A DNA stretch of 64,000 nt, taken from the sequence record MW233709; one strand, written 5' to 3'. Positions 1 to 59,909 of the stretch are shown here, piece by piece. This DNA is from Escherichia phage UPEC01. The translations under genes and the position numbers were made by a program. How positions within the stretch are numbered: position 1 is the stretch's first letter; each line of letters opens with the position of its first letter. The notes under the pieces were generated by a model. It worked only from the letters and a program-made list of their open reading frames with translations, was not told where the DNA came from and ran no database searches.

Positions 1-8
1 TATCACCG

Positions 9-38
9 GTTTACAAGCTGAACCAACCATGTAATAAT
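9..38 (+). promoter_or_regulatory. early sigma70-type promoter
   Basis: GTTTACA -35-like and TAATAAT -10-like; leader hairpin GTCCTCAT/ATGAGGAC follows. Confidence 0.5.
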
Positions 39-68
39 GTCCTCATACCAACAAATGAGGACATTATC

Positions 69-344
69 ATGGAACACGTTACTACTCATCACATCAAACA
101 AATTCTTATTCAAGCACTCAAAAACAACAACATCAATTTTCCAACCCATGAAATTTTTGATGTGTTATTCAACGAAGTCCAGGGTCAAGTTGCATATTAT
201 GACGTTATCGTTTATCTTTCAGAATTTGAAGTCTACCACCTGACTGAAATTGCTTTCTATCTCTATCGTGGGACTGCAGATTTTACTGGGGTCGTGAATG
301 CAGTTGGCGCATATAAAGAAGTTAAAGAACAAATGCACAATTAA
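69..344 (+). CDS. hypothetical early protein (91 aa)
   Basis: ATG ORF directly downstream of early promoter cassette at 9-38; no recognisable family. Confidence 0.45.
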   Translation: MEHVTTHHIKQILIQALKNNNINFPTHEIFDVLFNEVQGQVAYYDVIVYLSEFEVYHLTEIAFYLYRGTADFTGVVNAVGAYKEVKEQMHN

Positions 345-354
345 TTAAAAAGTA

Positions 355-384
355 GTGTACATCAGTATGGAGTCTATGTATAAT
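355..384 (+). promoter_or_regulatory. early promoter cassette
   Basis: A-run, GTGTACA, TATAAT; -10 lies in loop of 9-bp inverted repeat 363-371/388-396; conserved block GATTCCATACTGAGTTAC 385-402. Confidence 0.55.
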
Positions 385-418
385 GATTCCATACTGAGTT
401 ACCAAACTGGAGAATAAA

Positions 419-574
419 ATGAAACCTGCTCAATATGCAATGACTTTATACCTTGAAGTTAATGGCGATATTACTGAATTTTTTAAATTAATGCAACAGC
501 GCGGAAAAAGTTTTGCAGTTACTGAGCGTCAATTTTACGCTTGCCGTAAAAATACATACAATCGTTATGCGTGA
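419..574 (+). CDS. small hypothetical protein (51 aa)
   Basis: ATG preceded by GGAGAATAAAATG Shine-Dalgarno context shared with other early genes here; below ORF-track size cutoff. Confidence 0.4.
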   Translation: MKPAQYAMTLYLEVNGDITEFFKLMQQRGKSFAVTERQFYACRKNTYNRYA

Positions 575-584
575 GGAAAACAGA

Positions 585-851
585 ATGGATATTAAATTAT
601 ACTACGCCAAACACAAAGTTACAGGTATGGTTGTTGCTGCTATGTATGATGCGTCAGGTGATGGTGATGATATTACTACAGAATTGTCTCTTTCTGAATG
701 TAAATTTCTTCGCCCGCTAGTTGCCTCAAAGCGTGATTTAAAAAAGCTTATTGATGGAAAACTGGATAATGTTGATGGCATAGATATTCTTTATGACCTT
801 CGCACCGCATTGCACAGGGGTCTGATTGAAATAAAAGAGGTGATATTTTGA
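585..851 (+). CDS. hypothetical protein (88 aa)
   Basis: ATG at 585 with GAGGAAAACAGA RBS; track ORF 513 begins with non-ATG codon. Confidence 0.45.
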   Translation: MDIKLYYAKHKVTGMVVAAMYDASGDGDDITTELSLSECKFLRPLVASKRDLKKLIDGKLDNVDGIDILYDLRTALHRGLIEIKEVIF

Positions 852-941
852 GCAGCAAAACCTGGTGTCTTATCTGGATGTTGTGTATCCCAGTAATTTG
901 CGTTTGTTTTAGTTTATTATTAATGAAACTTGCATAAAAGA

Positions 942-970
942 GTGTACATCTCCGGTGGTTGTAGTATAAT
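942..970 (+). promoter_or_regulatory. early promoter cassette
   Basis: GTGTACA ... TATAAT; conserved leader CCTATCAACTACTG. Confidence 0.5.
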
Positions 971-995
971 GAACCTATCAACTACTGGAGATGAT

Positions 996-1112
996 TATGA
1001 AAAAGTTACTTAAAGCCATTTGGAACATGTTTGTACTGTTTGTTGTCCTGAGCATTTTCCCAATTGTTTTTATGATTGACCATGTACGCGTTTACTTTAA
1101 CTATTTCTTTTG
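996..1112 (+). CDS. small hydrophobic peptide (38 aa)
   Basis: ATG after GGAGATGATT RBS, hydrophobic core; very short. Confidence 0.25.
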
Positions 1113-1123
1113 AGGATAATATT

Positions 1124-1330
1124 ATGAATTACAATTCACAATTTCAGAAATCTAATCGTCGCTTTGACTTTATGTTCAAGTTTATTGTGGCAATGATTAT
1201 CCTGATTTTCATTGGTGCCATTGCAATGATTGGTTTCCAGCTCTGGATTGCTGCTGAAGTGTTCACACAAATCCAGGATAATGGTTTGAAGTCTGTTGTT
1301 GATGTAATTTGGAATGGTGCTAAGCAATGA
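1124..1330 (+). CDS. small membrane protein (68 aa)
   Basis: ATG after GAGGATAATATT RBS; central hydrophobic segment IVAMIILIFIGAIAMIGF. Confidence 0.4.
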   Translation: MNYNSQFQKSNRRFDFMFKFIVAMIILIFIGAIAMIGFQLWIAAEVFTQIQDNGLKSVVDVIWNGAKQ

Positions 1331-1572
1331 AACTTTTTAAAGACATTGCAGTTGGTGAAAAATTTGTCCTGGGTAATGGTCAACAACTGATTCGCATTTC
1401 GCCTTTAATGGATAACAGTGAGCGCCCTGTGCGTACTGAAAACTGTTTGGATTATCCTTTTTATCAGAAACGTTTTGCAATTGAAAATAATACTGAGTGC
1501 TTCACAGTTGATGAACTGATGGAATCATCAGAAGAAGTTGACTTGTGGGATGGCGCGGTAGATGTAGAATAG
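1327..1572 (+). CDS. hypothetical protein (81 aa)
   Basis: ATGA start/stop overlap with upstream ORF. Confidence 0.45.
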   Translation: MKLFKDIAVGEKFVLGNGQQLIRISPLMDNSERPVRTENCLDYPFYQKRFAIENNTECFTVDELMESSEEVDLWDGAVDVE

Positions 1573-1601
1573 TGTACAAACTCATGGGAGCAGAGTATAA
1601 T
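1572..1601 (+). promoter_or_regulatory. early promoter cassette
   Basis: GTGTACA ... TATAAT flanked by short inverted repeat. Confidence 0.5.
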
Positions 1602-1639
1602 GTTCCCGTGGATAATAAAATTTAATTGAGGAAAATATT

Positions 1640-1984
1640 ATGTCTAAAGTATTTTTTGGTAATCGCAACATTATGTTCTTTAAACAGATTAGCATATCAG
1701 AAGCATTTGATTTAAGTTATTCAGGTGGTACAAAAGCTGTTAACCTTAAAAATTTGATGTCTGCAGAATTTGCATTCTATCAGGACCCTGAAACTGGTTT
1801 CTATAAATTTATTAAGTTCCGCATGACTATGGACCGCGATTATCGCGATGTTTATTATACAAGTTATGAAAGTGTTGTGAATGCAATTCGTGAAGCTTAT
1901 GGGTTGGATTCGTTGTCTCTTGACCGTCTGTATAATGCAAGCCTTTACACCAGTGGATTTATTTTAGAACAACTACAAAAATAG
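1640..1984 (+). CDS. hypothetical protein (114 aa)
   Basis: ORF with GAGGAAAATATT RBS downstream of early promoter 1572-1601. Confidence 0.5.
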   Translation: MSKVFFGNRNIMFFKQISISEAFDLSYSGGTKAVNLKNLMSAEFAFYQDPETGFYKFIKFRMTMDRDYRDVYYTSYESVVNAIREAYGLDSLSLDRLYNASLYTSGFILEQLQK

Positions 1985-2013
1985 TGTACAAACTCTTGGG
2001 GTCAGAGTATAAT
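1984..2013 (+). promoter_or_regulatory. early promoter cassette
   Basis: GTGTACA ... TATAAT; -10 in loop of inverted repeat GGGGTC 1997-2002 / GACCCC 2014-2019. Confidence 0.55.
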
Positions 2014-2057
2014 GACCCCACTGGAGCACAAAACTTTAACTTACTGAGGAAATTAAT

Positions 2058-2507
2058 ATGACTACTTACATGACCCGTCGTGACGTACTGAATGCTGGTG
2101 CTACCACTGTTGCTTATATCCATAATGGTAATTATGTTGCCGGTCGCCCAACTAAAGAAGCTATCGCTCAACCAGGTTTTTATTTCGTGGTTAAAGGTGA
2201 AGGCGAATCACGTATTGTTGCTGCACGTTTTTATGTTGGTAACCAACGTTCACAACAAGGGTTTGACACTGTATTAAGTCACATCCGCAAACAACGTTCA
2301 CAATTGTCTCGCACAATGGCGAACAATGGTGTTATCTATGAAGTCCTGTTTGTTCCAGTTTCTAAAATGAAACCCCTGACAACTGGTTATGGTAAAGGTC
2401 AAATTGCGATGGCGTTCACTCGCTCACATAGTTCTGATTGCCAGACCCTTTCAGAAATGAATCGCATGCTTGCTGATAACTTTAAATTCATTCTGCAGAG
2501 CTATTAA
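2058..2507 (+). CDS. ndd: nucleoid disruption protein Ndd
   Basis: 149 aa; motifs [50 protein letters not shown] match remembered T4 Ndd (151 aa). Confidence 0.75.
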
Positions 2508-2508
2508 T

Positions 2509-2682
2509 ATGAGACATTTCTTTACAATGGGTTACCTATTTGTTTTAGCCCTATTTGTTATTACAGGAGCCTTTATAGCCTTTGGTGCTCCATTTAATGA
2601 TAAAGTTGCTGTTACTATGTGCTTTAGTGGTGGGTATATCTGTTTTGAACGCTTATGCAAAATGTGTGGTATATATGAGTAA
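2509..2682 (+). CDS. ac: small membrane protein, possible Ac homolog (58 aa)
   Basis: Hydrophobic small ORF between ndd and stp, the position of ac in T4; assignment by position only. Confidence 0.35.
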
Positions 2683-2755
2683 TTTCCATAACGAACATGT
2701 GATGCAATGGCATCGTCATAATCTGAAATTAACCGGCGTCTTCGGACGTCCTTGA
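2675..2755 (+). CDS. stp: Stp peptide (26 aa)
   Basis: Translation [26 protein letters not shown] closely matches remembered T4 Stp ([26 protein letters not shown]). Confidence 0.65.
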
Positions 2756-2762
2756 GGAAAAT

Positions 2763-2918
2763 ATGAATAAATTTGTTCATGGTGTAGCTTTTTTCTGCTG
2801 GTCATTTTTATTTGTTGGAACATTAATAACTGGTGAAACTTCAGTATTTCTGCAGTCAACAGCTCAAGGTGTATTAGCAGTTTTATCACTATTTAAATTA
2901 TTGGATAAAAATGATTAA
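2763..2918 (+). CDS. small membrane protein (51 aa)
   Basis: ATG ORF with hydrophobic N-terminus; below track cutoff. Confidence 0.3.
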   Translation: MNKFVHGVAFFCWSFLFVGTLITGETSVFLQSTAQGVLAVLSLFKLLDKND

Positions 2919-3051
2919 GAAAATCCTGGGCTACTCGTTAGCCCTTGCTGCCTTATTGGTGGCGCTGTATTACGGAGTTGTGTTTGCGTTAGTGCAGGTT
3001 GTGCTTTTTATTTCTGATGCTATAATGGCGGTACATTCGTTAATCTGGTAA
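2911..3051 (+). CDS. small membrane protein (46 aa)
   Basis: ATG overlapping upstream stop; almost entirely hydrophobic. Confidence 0.3.
   Translation: MIKKILGYSLALAALLVALYYGVVFALVQVVLFISDAIMAVHSLIW
3003..3026 (+). promoter_or_regulatory. middle (MotA-box) promoter candidate upstream of gene 52
   Basis: TGCTTT box about 14 bp upstream of TATAAT. Confidence 0.45.
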
Positions 3052-3059
3052 GGTGATAT

Positions 3060-4439
3060 ATGTCTGACGTTTTAAGTATGATGTCCAAACAGTTCAGTGA
3101 TTCCATGGGGACCCTTAACCCCCGCAGTCTAAAAGACATTATTGATGTGGAAGCATTGTCATATGCTATCTACACTGTGGAAGGTCGCGCCATCCCAAAC
3201 ATGATTGATGGTTTTAAACCAGTTCACAGATTTGTTATGGCGAGAGCATTAGACCTGGCGCGTGGTGATAAGAATAAATTCCATAAGGTTGCCTCCATTG
3301 CAGGTGGCGTAGCTGATTATGGTTATCACCATGGCGAAGCATCAGCGGAAGAAGCAACTTCTGGTCTGGTCGCAACATATAAAAATGAATACCCCATGTT
3401 TGATGGGCAAGGCAACTTTGGTTCCAGAATGGTGCCAGAAGCATCATCAGCTCGTTATGTATTCGCACGGGTTTCAAAGAACTTTTATAACTTGTTTAAG
3501 GATACAGAATATGCTCCGGTCCATCCTGATGAAGAACATAAGCCTCCTGCTTTTTATCTTCCTGTTATTCCTACTGTATTACTTAACGCCACTTCTGGGA
3601 TTGCTGTTGGCTTCGCTACTGATATTCTTCCTCATTCGTTCCAGGACGTCAAGGAAGCTGTTAAAGCTATCGTGGAAGGTCGTGAGCCGGTTGCTCCGAA
3701 AGTAAAATATCCAGAATTCCGCGGTAAAGTGGTTGAGCTGGAAGAGCCTGGTAAGTATGAACTTCATGGCACATACAAAATGACCTCCAGGACCCAAATG
3801 GAAATTACTGAAATCCCGGTCCAATGGAACCTGGAAAAGTATACAAGTAAAATCCTGGACCCGCTGGAAGAGAAAGGTTTTATCACCTGGAAAGATAACT
3901 GCGGCGAGCATGGTTTTGGGTTTAAGATTAAATTCCGCAAAGAATACAAGTTGGATGGTACCGAAGAAGAAAATCATGAAAAAATCATGAAAGACTTTGG
4001 TCTGATTGAGAAGCTCTCCCAGAACTTAACAGTGCTTAATCACAAAGGCAAGCTGGCTGAATACACCAACACGCTTGACCTGATTCGCGATTTCGTTGAT
4101 GTCCGTAAGACTTATGTTCAAGTGCGAATTGACAGTAAGATTAAAGAAACTGAAGCAGCATTTAAACTGGCCCGGGCAAAAGTCTTCTTTATTAAAGAAG
4201 TGATTGACGGTAAGGTTGTTATCCAGGGGAAACCTCGTAAGAAGTTGATTGAGGAACTCCAGGCGAGTGAAATATATGGCGATTATGCAGAGAAGTTAGT
4301 GGCGATGAACATCTACCATATGACCTCTGATGAAGCCAAGAAGCTTGCAGACGAAGCAAAGGCTAAGAAAGCTGAGCATGAGTACTGGAAGACAACTGAT
4401 GTTAAAACTGAATACCTTAATGATTTGGAGGCTCTATGA
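3060..4439 (+). CDS. 52: DNA topoisomerase II medium subunit gp52
   Basis: 459 aa; GyrA/ParC-like N-terminal region (AIPNMIDGFKPVHR, YHHGEAS, QGNFGS) as in T4 gp52. Confidence 0.9.
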   Translation: MSDVLSMMSKQFSDSMGTLNPRSLKDIIDVEALSYAIYTVEGRAIPNMIDGFKPVHRFVMARALDLARGDKNKFHKVASIAGGVADYGYHHGEASAEEATSGLVATYKNEYPMFDGQGNFGSRMVPEASSARYVFARVSKNFYNLFKDTEYAPVHPDEEHKPPAFYLPVIPTVLLNATSGIAVGFATDILPHSFQDVKEAVKAIVEGREPVAPKVKYPEFRGKVVELEEPGKYELHGTYKMTSRTQMEITEIPVQWNLEKYTSKILDPLEEKGFITWKDNCGEHGFGFKIKFRKEYKLDGTEEENHEKIMKDFGLIEKLSQNLTVLNHKGKLAEYTNTLDLIRDFVDVRKTYVQVRIDSKIKETEAAFKLARAKVFFIKEVIDGKVVIQGKPRKKLIEELQASEIYGDYAEKLVAMNIYHMTSDEAKKLADEAKAKKAEHEYWKTTDVKTEYLNDLEAL

Positions 4440-4534
4440 GTTTTGGAGTTGAGTTTGCATTGCTTTGTATTTTCGCGGCAATCGCAGGTGTGATTGTTGG
4501 TATGTTTATTGGTAATAAGATAGATAAAGACTAG
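4436..4534 (+). CDS. small hydrophobic peptide (32 aa)
   Basis: ATGA overlap with gene 52 stop; followed by terminator hairpin. Confidence 0.25.
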   Translation: MSFGVEFALLCIFAAIAGVIVGMFIGNKIDKD

Positions 4535-4557
4535 GACCCTTCGGGGTCCTTTTTTAT
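4533..4557 (+). terminator. intrinsic terminator
   Basis: GGACCC-TTCG-GGGTCC hairpin plus T-run. Confidence 0.7.
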
Positions 4558-4568
4558 TTTAAAAAAGT

Positions 4569-4598
4569 AGTGTACAAACCCCTTGTCTTAGGACATAA
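4569..4598 (+). promoter_or_regulatory. early promoter cassette
   Basis: AAAAAGTAGTGTACA ... CATAAT, preceded by terminator hairpin; conserved block 4599-4619. Confidence 0.6.
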
Positions 4599-4648
4599 TG
4601 ATTCCATACTGAGTTACACAATGAATCACAAAAACTTTGGAGAATAAA

Positions 4649-4864
4649 ATGTTTACTGCACAACAGAATGAAGGTCAAGAATACATCAACGCTAAATTCA
4701 AATCTAACAAAGAAGCTTGCTATTATTACTTTGACATGTTCAAACTGGCAAACTCTAAAGAAGAACGTAAACAAGCAATTGATGTGATTGTTTCTACTTC
4801 CCATATGAAACGTACTGTGGTACAATCATATGCATCAAATTATATGAAATCTATTAAGGGATAA
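4649..4864 (+). CDS. hypothetical protein (71 aa)
   Basis: ATG after GGAGAATAAAATG; track start 4637 is TTG. Confidence 0.45.
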   Translation: MFTAQQNEGQEYINAKFKSNKEACYYYFDMFKLANSKEERKQAIDVIVSTSHMKRTVVQSYASNYMKSIKG

Positions 4865-4866
4865 TT

Positions 4867-5475
4867 GTGAACAAGTTAAATTATATCGTTAAATGCTCCC
4901 AGAATGCGCTGCATGAGACTGATGTCAATGCTTTGGTGTTTGTATACAAAAACAACTTCGTGAGTCCAGAGGTTGTTTTAGACCAGCAGAACACATCAAT
5001 TGATAGCGTACAGACATTGTTGAATAACAACTATGTTGAAGCTTCTGGTGATGGTTTGATGATTACAGAAAAGGGTGTTGACCTTATTCTGGATGCAGCT
5101 GAACTTTGGGCGAATGAAAATAATCCTGACCTTCTGGAAGTGAAGAAGACAAGAACAAAACGCGGTGTGACTGATGAAATGGAAGCGACTGCAGAATATA
5201 TCAAAGAGCAATTGTTGTCTATTGGTATTGACTTTAAGAGCATTTCAGAAGACCGCAGCAATCTGATTGTGAAGTTCAAGCGTATCAAGACATTAAAACA
5301 GATTGATGTTCGTCGTGATGGTCAGATTCGCGTACATGCGTATAATACTGAACAAAAGATAGTAAAACAGTTTACAGACGTGGGATTTAGCGTTAAAGTA
5401 GGTGGATTGAATACCTACATTGACAACGTTATGTCAACTGAAAACATTCAACATGTTATTAACATCTTAAAGTGA
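4867..5475 (+). CDS. motA: middle transcription activator MotA-like
   Basis: 202 aa, GTG start; SGDGL.IT motif and position between gene 52 and asiA match T4 MotA (211 aa). Confidence 0.7.
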   Translation: MNKLNYIVKCSQNALHETDVNALVFVYKNNFVSPEVVLDQQNTSIDSVQTLLNNNYVEASGDGLMITEKGVDLILDAAELWANENNPDLLEVKKTRTKRGVTDEMEATAEYIKEQLLSIGIDFKSISEDRSNLIVKFKRIKTLKQIDVRRDGQIRVHAYNTEQKIVKQFTDVGFSVKVGGLNTYIDNVMSTENIQHVINILK

Positions 5476-29473: not shown

Positions 29474-29884
29474 ATGAAACAAATCGCTGATGAATACAGT
29501 TTTATAAAATACGCGGAGTTAGAGTTAGTCGATGGTAAAATCCCTATTCTTACTCTCGCGAACAAGAAAAATGTTATCTATGCTATTTCAGTTGATGATG
29601 AACTAGTGTATATTGGTAAGACGAACAACCTTAAGAAGCGTATCAACTATTACCGGACTGCGATTAACCGAATCGACCAGACGAGCGATTCAAACAAATC
29701 CCGGATGATACATGAAGCTTTACAAGAAGGTAAAAAGGTGGTATTCTATGCACGACAATGTTTCAATCTGTCAATGACCAATGAACTTGGCACAATGTCA
29801 GTCGAAACGATGTCTCTGGAAGAGCCGATGTTCATCAAGCTTTTTAATCCCCCGTGGAATTACCAACATAAGGTGAAGAAATGA
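29474..29884 (+). CDS. denA: endonuclease II (GIY-YIG family) DenA
   Basis: 136 aa from ATG 29474; VYIGKT.NL.KRINYYRTAINR and C-terminal KLFNPPWN match T4 DenA. Confidence 0.8.
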   Translation: MKQIADEYSFIKYAELELVDGKIPILTLANKKNVIYAISVDDELVYIGKTNNLKKRINYYRTAINRIDQTSDSNKSRMIHEALQEGKKVVFYARQCFNLSMTNELGTMSVETMSLEEPMFIKLFNPPWNYQHKVKK

Positions 29885-31017
29885 TTGAATTATATGATAA
29901 CTTAATGAAGCTTTGCGCCGAATCCGATAAAGGTAAGTTTTTCTATACGGATTTTGTTTCTCCATTTGAAACTAAGTTCCGCATCTTTAGCTATAACTAT
30001 GCTTCCTATAGTGATTGGCTTCTTGATGATGCGCTGGAGTGTCGTGGCATTATGTTTGAAATGGATGACAATGGTCCAGTTCGCATTGCCGCCCGTCCTA
30101 TGGAAAAATTCTTTAATCTGGGTGAGAATCCAATGACCATGGACCTTAACCTTGATGAGGTTGTCCTGGTTACTGCAAAAGCTGATGGTAGCTTGGTTTC
30201 TACTTATATGGACCAGACTAATATCGCCTTTAAATCCAAAGGGTCAATCAAAAGCTCCCAAGCTGCTGAATCCTTGCAGGTGTTTAAACAAGAGCATCGC
30301 AGTGCATTCAGGGCTCGCGTAACTGAAATCACTGAAGCTGGTTATACATGCAATATGGAATATGTTGCACCAACCAACCGCATTGTTTTGCCTTACCAGG
30401 AACGTGACCTGATTTTACTGAACGTTCGCCATAATGAAACTGGTGAATATATTCCTTATCAGGAACTGTTCAAAGATGCTGCGCTCCGTCCTTTCCTGGT
30501 TGAAGCATATGACCCGGCGAGCATTGAGAATGTTCGTGGTATGAAAGAGATTGAAGGCTTCGTCTATGAGCTGGCAAGTGGTCAGAAGTTCAAGATGAAA
30601 ACAGAATGGTATTGTGCTCTGCATCATACTAAAGACTCCATTAATAATAATGAGCGACTGTTTGAAGTTGTTGTTGCTGGCGGGGCAGATGATGTTATTG
30701 CCATGTTTACTGGCGATACTTATGCTCGCGAAAAAGTTAATGCCTTTACTGTAACGCATCTGGATTATCTGTCCAATACATTGGGATTGTTGCTTGATGC
30801 TCAGAAACAACTGGCAGGAAAAGACCGACGCGAGTTTGCGATTAAAGGTCAAGAGTTGTGCAAACCATACCCGGGATTGTTCTCCGTATTAATGAACACC
30901 TATCAACGCCCACAGGAAACTGAACAAACGATTGCTCAAATCAATAAAGTTTTCCTTAAAAATCATAAACTTTACATTCCGTCGGACTACCAAGCGGAAG
31001 TAATCCTTCCTGAATAA
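29881..31017 (+). CDS. rnlA: RNA ligase 1 (RnlA, gp63)
   Basis: 378 aa; RIFSYNYASYSDWLL.DALECRGIMFEMD, KADGSLVSTY (KxDG), IVL.YQE match T4 RnlA. Confidence 0.9.
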   Translation: MIELYDNLMKLCAESDKGKFFYTDFVSPFETKFRIFSYNYASYSDWLLDDALECRGIMFEMDDNGPVRIAARPMEKFFNLGENPMTMDLNLDEVVLVTAKADGSLVSTYMDQTNIAFKSKGSIKSSQAAESLQVFKQEHRSAFRARVTEITEAGYTCNMEYVAPTNRIVLPYQERDLILLNVRHNETGEYIPYQELFKDAALRPFLVEAYDPASIENVRGMKEIEGFVYELASGQKFKMKTEWYCALHHTKDSINNNERLFEVVVAGGADDVIAMFTGDTYAREKVNAFTVTHLDYLSNTLGLLLDAQKQLAGKDRREFAIKGQELCKPYPGLFSVLMNTYQRPQETEQTIAQINKVFLKNHKLYIPSDYQAEVILPE

Positions 31018-32634: not shown

Positions 32635-33856
<1,222 letters not shown>

Positions 33857-33857
<1 letters not shown>

Positions 33858-58901: not shown

Positions 58902-59909
58902 ATGTTTAAGAAATACAACAGCCTTGAAAATCACTATAACAACAAGTTCATTGAAAAGATTCGCCTGCAAGGCTTCACCAACGGTGAATGGGTAGCTCGT
59001 GAAAAGATTCATGGTACCAACTTTTCATTAATCATTGAACAAGACAATGTGACATGTGCGAAACGCACTGGACCTATCCTACCTGCAGAAGATTTTTATG
59101 GTTATGAAATTGTATTAAAGAACTATGCAGATTCTATTAAATCTGTACAGAAACTTTTGCAGGATATTAATTACCAGGCATATCAGATTTATGGCGAGTT
59201 TGCTGGTACAGGTATTCAGAAGAATGTGAATTACGGCGATAAAGATTTCTATGTGTTTGATATCCGCGTTACTAAAGAAGATGGTTTTGAATCCGTCCTG
59301 ACTGACACACTTATGGAAGCCTTTTGTATTATTCATAAGTTTAAAGTTGCTCCGCGCCTGGCTACTGGTAGCTTTGAAGACCTTATTAAGCTACCTAATG
59401 ACCTGGATTCTGTGGTCCCTGATTACAATTTTACAGTGGATAATGCAGGATTGACTACAGCAAATACCACTGATTTTGATGCAAAGGTGGAAGGTAAAGT
59501 ATTCACTGCTGAAGGATTTGTATTAAAACCTGATGTTCCTGCCTGGTTACCTAACGGCGAGCGTGTGGCGATTAAATGCAAGAACTCTAAATTCAGCGAA
59601 AAGAAAAAGTCTGATAAGCCTATTAAGGCCGCTGTTGTGTTGTCCCAGGAAGACCTGGATATTTTATGGCAGTTCACTGATTACGTGACTGTTAACCGTA
59701 TTAATAATGTTATCAGTAAAATTGGGGAAGTATCGCCGAAGGATTTTGGGAAGGTAATGGGTTTGACTGTCCAGGATATCCTGGAAGAAGCTGGTCGTGA
59801 AGGCCTTGAATTGACCCAGTCAGAAAATCCTGTTGAAGTTAAAAAGCAACTTATCACAAATGTAAGAGAAACATTAAGACATGTTTGGATTGCATTAATT
59901 AGTGAATAA
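58902..59909 (+). CDS. rnlB: RNA ligase 2 (RnlB)
   Basis: 335 aa; [29 protein letters not shown] (KxHG), [22 protein letters not shown] near-identical to T4 Rnl2. Confidence 0.9.

Follow-up and report, generated by a model that had tools for sequence, protein, structure and literature searches.

What do the four very short open reading frames (ORFs) packed between ndd and gene 52 of Escherichia phage UPEC01 encode? They occupy positions 2509-3051 on the + strand of a 64,000-nucleotide (nt) stretch of this phage (sequence record MW233709), which we call the window and to which all coordinates refer, and they adjoin or overlap one another between ndd (2058-2507) and gene 52 (3060-4439). The initial annotation had drawn attention to this tight packing, which is evident in both the ORF list and the sequence, and had described the set as membrane-peptide genes around stp. 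Our analysis indicates that the segment is very probably the 'ndd-to-52' accessory cluster of the T-even phages, that is, an early unit of very short genes together with ndd and 52. It is made up of known T-even early small genes (those for Stp, Ac and gp52.1) and one extra small membrane protein, here termed ORF57.

A nucleotide search with the region 1900-4600 recovered members of the genus Gaprivervirus, T-even phages of Escherichia, and their close relatives. The nearest matches, TH41 (98.4%) and ECML-359 (98.2%), each aligned as a single piece, and the other relatives mostly in 2-4 pieces. The gene content surrounding the cluster is that of the 'rIIB-denB-ndd ... 52-motA' early region of T4, and it lies in the direction of early transcription. 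The order of genes in UPEC01 is ndd, ORF57, stp, ac, 52.1, 52 and ORF32, all on the + strand. The first of these encodes a nucleoid disruption protein of 149 amino acids (aa) with 61% identity to T4 Ndd (phrog_1102, E-value 1.7e-59), and gene 52 encodes the 459-aa medium subunit of DNA topoisomerase II (69% identity to T4 gp52; relatives carry the same annotation). A single nt lies between the ndd stop and the ATG of ORF57, whose last 8 nt are shared with stp. After a spacer of 7 nt comes ac, which in turn has 8 nt in common with 52.1, as in T4; a gap of 8 nt precedes gene 52, and 52 and ORF32 share an ATGA overlap.

Each of the four short ORFs could be placed in a family by profile searches. 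The product of the 26-aa ORF at 2675-2755 scores 55.3 bits with PF08133, well above the gathering score of 25, over residues 1-25 of 26 (also phrog_6763, E-value 2e-19), which bears out its earlier identification as Stp; it lies directly ahead of ac, with ORF57 intervening between it and ndd. The 51-aa ORF at 2763-2918 encodes a small membrane protein that falls in the same family, phrog_2501 (E-value 2.9e-23), as T4 Ac (2.2e-25). The 46-aa ORF at 2911-3051 gives a full-length match to PF24129 (DUF7396; 71.8 bits versus a cut-off of 27) and belongs to phrog_3595; its very hydrophobic product is 87% identical to T4 gp52.1, the most conserved of the small-gene set, and we identify it by these matches as gp52.1. 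The first ORF, at 2509-2682, matches phrog_5941 over its full length (1-57 of 57; E-value 1e-22). It had been described as a 58-aa hydrophobic ORF; the hydrophobic character stands, whereas the length is 57 aa, the 58 codons including the stop.

The products of ORF57, ac and 52.1, as well as those of ORF32 and the ORFs starting at 997 and 1124 (see below), have grand averages of hydropathy (GRAVY) of 0.5-1.8, and each contains at least one 17-residue segment with a predicted insertion energy at or below 0. This profile agrees with the hydrophobicity previously noted for the 51-aa and 46-aa ORFs. With a GRAVY of -0.87, Stp is hydrophilic and therefore not a membrane peptide, so that the collective label of membrane-peptide genes fits ORF57, Ac and gp52.1 and has to be withdrawn for the soluble Stp.

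An extra gene between ndd and stp

T4 lacks ORF57, and its absence from this phage explains why it was overlooked by sixty years of T4 genetics; other T4-like phages possess it. Searches with tblastn recovered full-length matches, situated beside ndd, in 218 phage records, of which 161 are T4-like phages of Klebsiella and the remainder come from phages of Escherichia, Shigella, Serratia, Raoultella and Erwinia. An exhaustive HMMER search of 1.84 billion representative proteins yielded 9 representative clusters of relatives, all of 57-61 aa, and nothing that pointed to larger or cellular members. The family is narrow. A word-indexed protein search was uninformative, returning four near-identical proteins alone, one of them misnamed 'sliding clamp'. 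Permissive E-values drew in SecF, PIG-F and glycine zipper models from NCBIfam and Pfam for ORF57, Ac, ORF32 and the ndd.4 product, and these sub-threshold matches were rejected as artefacts of transmembrane composition.

The invariant or nearly invariant residues of ORF57 are M1, Y9, F11, G26, P28, F46, E47 and R48. An AlphaFold2 model built on the family alignment (mean predicted local distance difference test score, pLDDT, 84.7) comprises two helices, spanning residues 2-24 and 31-52, connected by a G-x-P loop, and the conserved F-E-R motif is situated at the end of the second helix. Taken together with the hydrophobicity profile, the model suggests a two-helix hairpin in the inner membrane, with a short polar C-terminal tail following the F-E-R motif.

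To which of its two neighbors is this gene tied? In all nine fetched genomes that carry it, representing the 7 genera Gaprivervirus, Tequatrovirus, Dhakavirus, Jiaodavirus, Marfavirus, Winklervirus and Kagamiyamavirus, ORF57 starts 1-2 nt from the ndd stop. Comparison with VR7, VR25 and YenM_P8 (P8) reduces its presence or absence to an exact 166-bp indel, flanked by a 7-bp direct repeat, ATATGAG, at 2507-2513 and 2673-2679, at the start codons; in these three phages ndd joins stp directly, as in T4. This is the sole indel among the Gaprivervirus genomes compared. A further one, affecting stp in VR7 and P8, was suggested by their annotation and was ruled out, since tblastn uncovered in these phages a copy of stp that is 96-100% identical but lacks annotation.

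A different affiliation could be read from the 8-nt overlap of ORF57 with stp, which is found in UPEC01, ECML-359, Shfl2 and dhaeg, and from the last codon of ORF57, which co-varies with the next gene (...YE-stop before stp and ...YK-stop before others). ORF57 and stp would then constitute one module under obligate co-expression, in which ORF57 acts as a membrane partner or regulator of Stp, or as a second anti-restriction or PrrC-related factor. We consider this improbable. The last-codon pattern arises because the downstream start codon overlaps it, and the phyletic patterns of the two genes diverge: ORF57 is commonest in the T4-like phages of Klebsiella, Serratia and Erwinia, where tblastn did not find stp, and stp is present without ORF57 in T4, T6, VR7, VR25, P8 and small siphoviruses. 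Given these Klebsiella records with ORF57 and no stp, and stp phages with no ORF57, the companion of ORF57 is ndd, its constant neighbor. The distribution thus indicates that ORF57 travels with ndd, to which it is probably tied by translational coupling, and not with stp, and such coupling to ndd could extend across at least seven genera of T4-like phages. A more specific role, whether as an effector of host takeover or of anti-defence or as a partner of Ndd in the membrane, is a tentative suggestion to which we give a low probability; we place at the same level, as a second possibility for what is distinctive at this locus, a Gaprivervirus variant of Stp with altered specificity.

Coding status and expression of the short ORFs

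On the + strand, 98.7% of 2509-3051 is occupied by ORFs that begin with ATG. When the segment was shuffled 2000 times (dinucleotide-type), coverage averaged 0.34 and peaked at 0.89, with no shuffle attaining 0.95. We also obtained pairwise Nei-Gojobori estimates of the ratio of nonsynonymous to synonymous substitution rates (dN/dS), with synonymous differences often near saturation, the medians being 0.39 for ORF57, 0.16 for stp, 0.44 for ac and 0.18 for 52.1. Because these ratios lie below 1, as illustrated by 52.1 in comparison with T4 (proportion of nonsynonymous differences, pN, 0.06 versus 0.55 for synonymous differences, pS), they point to protein-level constraint, and by this measure ORF57, stp, ac and 52.1 are under purifying selection. 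Membership in conserved families and dN/dS below 1 in all four cases sustain the view that the hydrophobic ORFs are real genes.

It could be objected that such ORFs are very short, that three of them have no clear Shine-Dalgarno sequence, that their T4 orthologues have escaped proteomics and that several public annotations leave them out. On this basis they might be chance frames in AT-rich intergenic DNA that are never translated, with either stp alone or nothing in the interval qualifying as a gene. We regard this as highly improbable, since each matches a phage family profile with E-values of about 1e-22 to 1e-23, 218 records of ORF57 and 250 of Ac retain length and frame, dN/dS values range from 0.06 to 0.5 against near-saturated synonymous change, the observed ORF coverage was never attained by shuffling, and mutant phenotypes are known for T4 ac and stp.

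The organization of the locus bears on how these genes might be expressed. A consensus scan revealed five + strand copies, at 356-384, 943-970, 1573-1601, 1985-2013 and 4571-4599, of a promoter-like element of the form AAAA-AGTGTACA-N16/17-TATAAT-G, and in the alignment of the five copies the AGTGTACA and ATAATG blocks are invariant. The copy at 1985-2013 (+), which resembles an early promoter (TGTACA-N17-TATAAT), is positioned 45 nt upstream of ndd. A terminator scan detected an intrinsic-terminator-like hairpin, AGGACCC-UUCG-GGGUCCU, followed by a T run, at 4533-4558 (+; the hairpin itself spanning 4533-4550) after ORF32. Between these two elements, ndd, ORF57, stp, ac, 52.1, 52 and ORF32 seem to make up a single early transcription unit of seven genes, and the T4 genes stp, ac, 52.1 and motA.1 have been classed as early transcripts (PMC9697503 Table S2). 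Most gene starts in the unit overlap or abut the preceding stop, and translation is therefore probably coupled. In particular, ORF57, stp and 52.1 begin within or right at the stop of the gene before them, as is the case for stp of T4 with respect to ndd, and are probably translated by termination-reinitiation coupling rather than being driven by Shine-Dalgarno sequences; such sequences precede ac (GAGGA), gene 52 (AAGGTGA) and ORF32 (GGAGG).

Stp, Ac and the proposed functions of the cluster

In T4, Stp is both required and sufficient for turning on the latent anticodon nuclease PrrC; it targets the type Ic restriction enzyme EcoprrI, which it binds and whose restriction it inhibits, and acts on EcoR124I as well but not on type Ia enzymes, and the tRNA-Lys cleaved by PrrC is healed and sealed by Pnk and Rnl1 (PMC3014915, PMC12707154). 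The initial annotation had pointed out that the window also carries pseT, rnlA and rnlB as genes that counter PrrC. All three are recognized by Pfam models on the + strand: rnlA (gene 63), for RNA ligase 1, at 29881-31017 (PF09511 and PF20819); pseT, for polynucleotide kinase/3'-phosphatase, at 32952-33857 (PF25109 and PF13671, AAA_33); and rnlB, for RNA ligase 2, at 58902-59909 (PF09414 and PF18043). The first two provide the repair pair, in the form of a bifunctional kinase/phosphatase and an Rnl1-type ligase with a C-terminal tRNA-specificity domain, and their action against PrrC is documented (PMC3014915). For rnlB the statement went too far, as the review literature names Pnk and Rnl1 only and we found in it no role for Rnl2 against PrrC (PMC3014915). 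In comparison with the Stp/EcoprrI-PrrC/Pnk-Rnl1 circuit of Kaufmann, Snyder and colleagues, the phage side in UPEC01 is complete, with a Stp family member, Pnk and Rnl1. It differs in that the host side, prrC within a type Ic hsd locus, is outside the window, and in that Rnl2 is an extra not in the documented circuit.

Stp of UPEC01 is identical to that of T4 in residues 1-11 and in 15 of the N-terminal 18, the differences being F12W, Y13H and N15H. These N-terminal 18 residues are almost invariant in the relatives of T4, the last 8 are largely dispensable, and loss-of-function mutations in T4 Stp cluster at residues 4-14 (PMC3014915); two of the substituted positions, 12 and 13, lie within this range. 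Among a total of 604 Stp matches, with no Klebsiella phage among the organism groups listed, 39 phage records share at least 99% identity with the UPEC01 protein. The Gaprivervirus Stp (W12, H13, H15) may have a changed specificity, for instance one that keeps the action on type Ic enzymes while its sensing by PrrC-type guards is altered. A natural variant altered in the 4-14 segment, next to intact Pnk and Rnl1, offers a test case for the specificity of the Stp/type Ic/PrrC interaction.

The stp frame is open as far as an in-frame ATG at 2597 (or a TTG at 2582), and the extension this would add is strongly hydrophobic, raising the prospect of a 52-aa membrane-anchored form of Stp. Such a form is very doubtful. 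The extension lies entirely within ORF57 in another frame, and its hydrophobicity is what is expected of a T-rich alternative frame of a membrane-protein gene; no Shine-Dalgarno sequence is present before 2597; and the longer frame is confined to UPEC01 and the near-identical ECML-359, stp in Shfl2 and dhaeg starting at the canonical ATG. The extended product was rejected on account of this lack of conservation. We similarly set aside, as a regulatory element, a 6-bp hairpin with a C(UUCG)G tetraloop at 2735-2750 (+), within the 3' end of stp (the GVFGR codons) and before the ac Shine-Dalgarno sequence. It is found in 6 of 7 phages, T6 being without it, and its minimum free energy of -8.4 kcal/mol corresponds to a z-score of -0.6 against shuffles.

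Stp homologues of 30 aa were also observed in non-T4-like phages of about 42-56 kb, where they sit in unannotated gaps of early-gene arrays, for example at L010:822-914 in Escherichia phage ZCEC5 (Kagunavirus) and L009:1666-1758 in Shigella phage Sf12 (Drexlerviridae). Further carriers are Rtp, BEK2/3/6, K1ind2/3, Ro145clw, RP180, Veterinaerplatzvirus and Bas95, and the gene is named in the RefSeq record of Rtp only. If these small phages are without tRNA repair, PrrC triggered by their Stp would be expected to abort them.

T4 Ac makes infected cells sensitive to acridines, and its expression sensitises E. coli to acriflavine and ampicillin (bioRxiv 10.1101/2025.06.30.662393, PMC13250531). The substitution G38R in T4 Ac confers acriflavine resistance, and Ac has been proposed to block AcrAB-TolC efflux (bioRxiv 10.1101/2025.06.30.662393). 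The 51-aa ORF of UPEC01 is 36% identical to T4 Ac and keeps its SVFxQxxAQG motif (SVFLQSTAQG versus SVFSQALAQG in T4), including the glycine corresponding to G38. It lies between stp and 52.1, its end overlapping the start of the latter, and its homologues are labelled ac in PST, RB69 and wV7. Shared family, motif and position identify it as the Ac orthologue. That ORF57, placed at the 'ac position' by the initial annotation, should instead be the Ac equivalent and the 51-aa ORF something else can be dismissed as extremely unlikely: ORF57 is small and hydrophobic, adjoins stp and shares with T4 Ac a two-helix prediction, but it matches phrog_5941 alone whereas T4 Ac and the 51-aa ORF both match phrog_2501, ac lies downstream and not upstream of stp in T4 (order ndd-stp-ac-52.1-52), EcS1 and Shfl2 have ORF57 and an Ac homologue together, and the AQG motif with the resistance-determining G38 sits in the 51-aa ORF.

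E. coli AcrZ, a small membrane protein of 49 aa, binds AcrB. Ac is comparable to it in size class, in having a hydrophobic helix and in its proposed action on AcrAB-TolC, a likeness that we use as a working functional analogy alone for how Ac, and by extension the other peptides, may act. The preprint on Ac makes no mention of AcrZ or AcrB (bioRxiv 10.1101/2025.06.30.662393).

These observations can be assembled into a provisional scheme. Early transcription would begin at the promoter-like site at 1985-2013 and end at the terminator hairpin after ORF32. The hydrophobic peptides might enter the inner membrane of the host in the first minutes after infection and, by analogy with Ac, modulate host membrane proteins or membrane permeability. 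As in the T4 literature, Stp would inhibit type Ic restriction; on prr+ hosts this would unmask the tRNA-Lys nuclease PrrC, and Pnk and Rnl1 would repair the damage. Ac would sensitise infected cells to acridines, by a block of AcrAB-TolC in the current proposal, and ORF57 would be an independent member of the toolkit that is tied to ndd. The whole 52.1-rIIB block of T4 can be deleted on laboratory hosts (PMC9712115), and the small genes are therefore likely to have accessory functions of the host-range type.

Several points weigh against the interpretation of the locus as an expressed early unit of functional small genes. Stp, Ac, gp52.1, MotA.1, Ndd.2 and Ndd.2a went undetected in T4 shotgun proteomics (Class_P = NA; PMC9697503 Table S2). 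Our literature search found nothing relevant on ribosome profiling or small-protein mapping in T4. The case for translation comes from genetics for T4 stp and ac, and from conservation only for 52.1, ORF57 and ORF32. The promoter and the terminator are consensus matches only, and the 21 promoter-like sites in 1-5000 are not above the number in shuffles (17.6 +/- 4.5). ORF57, stp and 52.1 are without a good Shine-Dalgarno sequence. As for function, the AcrAB-TolC mechanism of Ac is a preprint proposal only, the membrane-modulator role of ORF57, gp52.1 and ORF32 is drawn by analogy, and the changes at positions 12 and 13 of Stp, inside 4-14, mean that EcoprrI/PrrC activity of the UPEC01 protein cannot be assumed. 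The proteomic non-detection neither supports nor refutes translation, being expected for tiny hydrophobic products. Likewise a missing translation signal, which the initial annotation would have accepted as refuting the hydrophobic ORFs, is not decisive alone, given that ORF57, stp and 52.1 are stop-coupled and under purifying selection.

Modular composition of the interval and its surroundings

We mapped the small-gene content of the ndd-52 interval in 15 phages using tblastn and ORF maps, and recovered five small-gene families: ORF57, stp, ac (type A), type B and 52.1. The type B family (phrog_9347), which is absent from the UPEC01 window, comprises membrane proteins of 46-55 aa with the motif F-[AV]-A-G-[VA]-[FW]-[VI]-P and has a median dN/dS of 0.38; representatives are found at L001:3198-3365 (VR7), L007:2755-2919 (dhaeg) and L013:2811-2969 (EcS1). 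The complement ORF57 + stp + ac + 52.1 is shared by UPEC01, ECML-359 and Shfl2. T4, T6 and P8 have stp + ac + 52.1, and VR7 and VR25 have stp + type B + 52.1. In dhaeg we find ORF57 + stp + type B + 52.1, in VR5, Marfa, F48 and CHI14 ORF57 + type B + 52.1, in JD18 ORF57 + 52.1 and in EcS1 ORF57 + ac + type B + 52.1. These presence-absence patterns indicate that the cluster is modular, with ORF57, stp, ac and type B each independently present or absent in related phages. In many relatives type B takes the place of ac, whereas EcS1 has both. The junction before the ac/type B slot, TGAGGAAAATATG, is invariant in the six other phages aligned with UPEC01, whichever cassette follows.

This arrangement invites comparison with the promoter-early stem-loop (PeSL) elements described in the hyperplastic regions of T4-like phages (Comeau 2014, PMC4122927; also Arbiol 2010). 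At 4533-4599 the locus likewise has a stem-loop terminator followed by a conserved early promoter: the hairpin at 4533-4550 and its T run precede TGTACA-N17-CATAAT at 4571-4599, after which comes GGAGAATAAAATG, in agreement with the PeSL order of stem-loop, sigma-70-like early promoter, Shine-Dalgarno sequence and start codon. As in PeSL regions, the promoter element has further copies (at 356, 943, 1573 and 1985) and relatives differ by cassette indels. Unlike the situation at PeSLs, the ndd-52 indels of the UPEC01 relatives are not located at such elements, the ORF57 indel falling between the ATATGAG repeats and the ac/type B swap beside the conserved ribosome-binding-site junction.

UPEC01 resembles T4 (NC_000866, 163.7-166.0 kb) in the way ndd, stp, ac, 52.1 and 52 are ordered and oriented, and has in common with it the families PF08133, phrog_2501 and DUF7396, tight or overlapping junctions and the TGAGGAAAATATG junction before ac. 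It departs from T4 in the extra 57-aa gene between ndd and stp, in the divergence of Ac and the three Stp substitutions given above, and in the ORF following gene 52, which belongs to phrog_16377, whereas T4 MotA.1 belongs to phrog_3487. The locus is essentially the same as in ECML-359 (OL631482), TH41 (MT446412) and TH22, with 98% nucleotide identity; ORF57, Stp and Ac of ECML-359 are 100% identical to those of UPEC01, and the differences from the ECML-359 and TH records are those of annotation only, the TH records carrying none. Thus, what the locus contains is largely textbook T4 biology (stp, ac, 52.1, ndd, 52) or catalogued families of hypothetical proteins (ORF57, ORF32), and with near-identical loci already in GenBank it matters little as a discovery. 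What it does provide is a clean map of a modular slot with five independent small-gene families, and the residual interest lies in ORF57 and type B, as widespread, unstudied small membrane proteins under selection, and in the natural Stp variant.

The locus also illustrates how poorly tiny genes are annotated, in line with the earlier remark that most of them fall below usual cutoffs. ECML-359 lists 52.1 alone of the four, VR7 and YenM_P8 have no entry for stp, which is missing from many records, and in about half of a 60-record sample the Stp match overlies the neighboring ndd coding sequence only, or no annotation. Gene 52 is also unannotated in ECML-359. Wrong product names were encountered in PP693301 (YenM_P8), OM386655 (ESCO10), OL964745, OK272473 and OL960581: 'naphthalene 1,2-dioxygenase' is given to ndd.4, ndd.1 and stp, and 'recombination endonuclease subunit' to 52.1; 'clamp loader small subunit' is another, and 'sliding clamp' underlies the ORF57 and Stp matches in ESCO10.

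Downstream of the four genes, alignments of gp52 to its counterparts in T4, Shfl2 and JD18 begin at residue 19, and VR7 gene 52 is annotated from a later ATG. The N-terminal ~18 residues (3060-3113) may represent a lineage-specific extension or reflect ambiguity of the start site, and the start at 3060 is favoured because of its strong AAGGTGA Shine-Dalgarno sequence. ORF32 (4436-4534, +), encoding a 32-aa single-pass membrane peptide (phrog_16377, E-value 1.7e-9), occupies the position of T4 motA.1 despite belonging to another family, and has orthologues at the matching position in VR25, P8, dhaeg and VR5.

The further short hydrophobic ORFs that had been reported at 996, 1124 and 4436 are indeed present, at 997-1113, 1124-1330 and, as ORF32, at 4436-4534. 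The first (+) encodes a 38-aa orthologue of Ndd.4 with a single transmembrane segment (phrog_3098, E-value 2.3e-23; 61% identity to T4 Ndd.4) and has a GGAG Shine-Dalgarno sequence 7 nt upstream. The second (+), preceded by GAGGA, encodes a 68-aa membrane-anchored protein of the T4 Ndd.2a type (DUF7248; PF23906, 87.7 bits; phrog_2401). To these we add a hydrophobic ORF of 29 aa at 848-937 (+), not listed earlier, which is a homologue of T4 ndd.6 that begins with TTG behind a strong GAGGTGA Shine-Dalgarno sequence (phrog_8851, E-value 2.4e-15).

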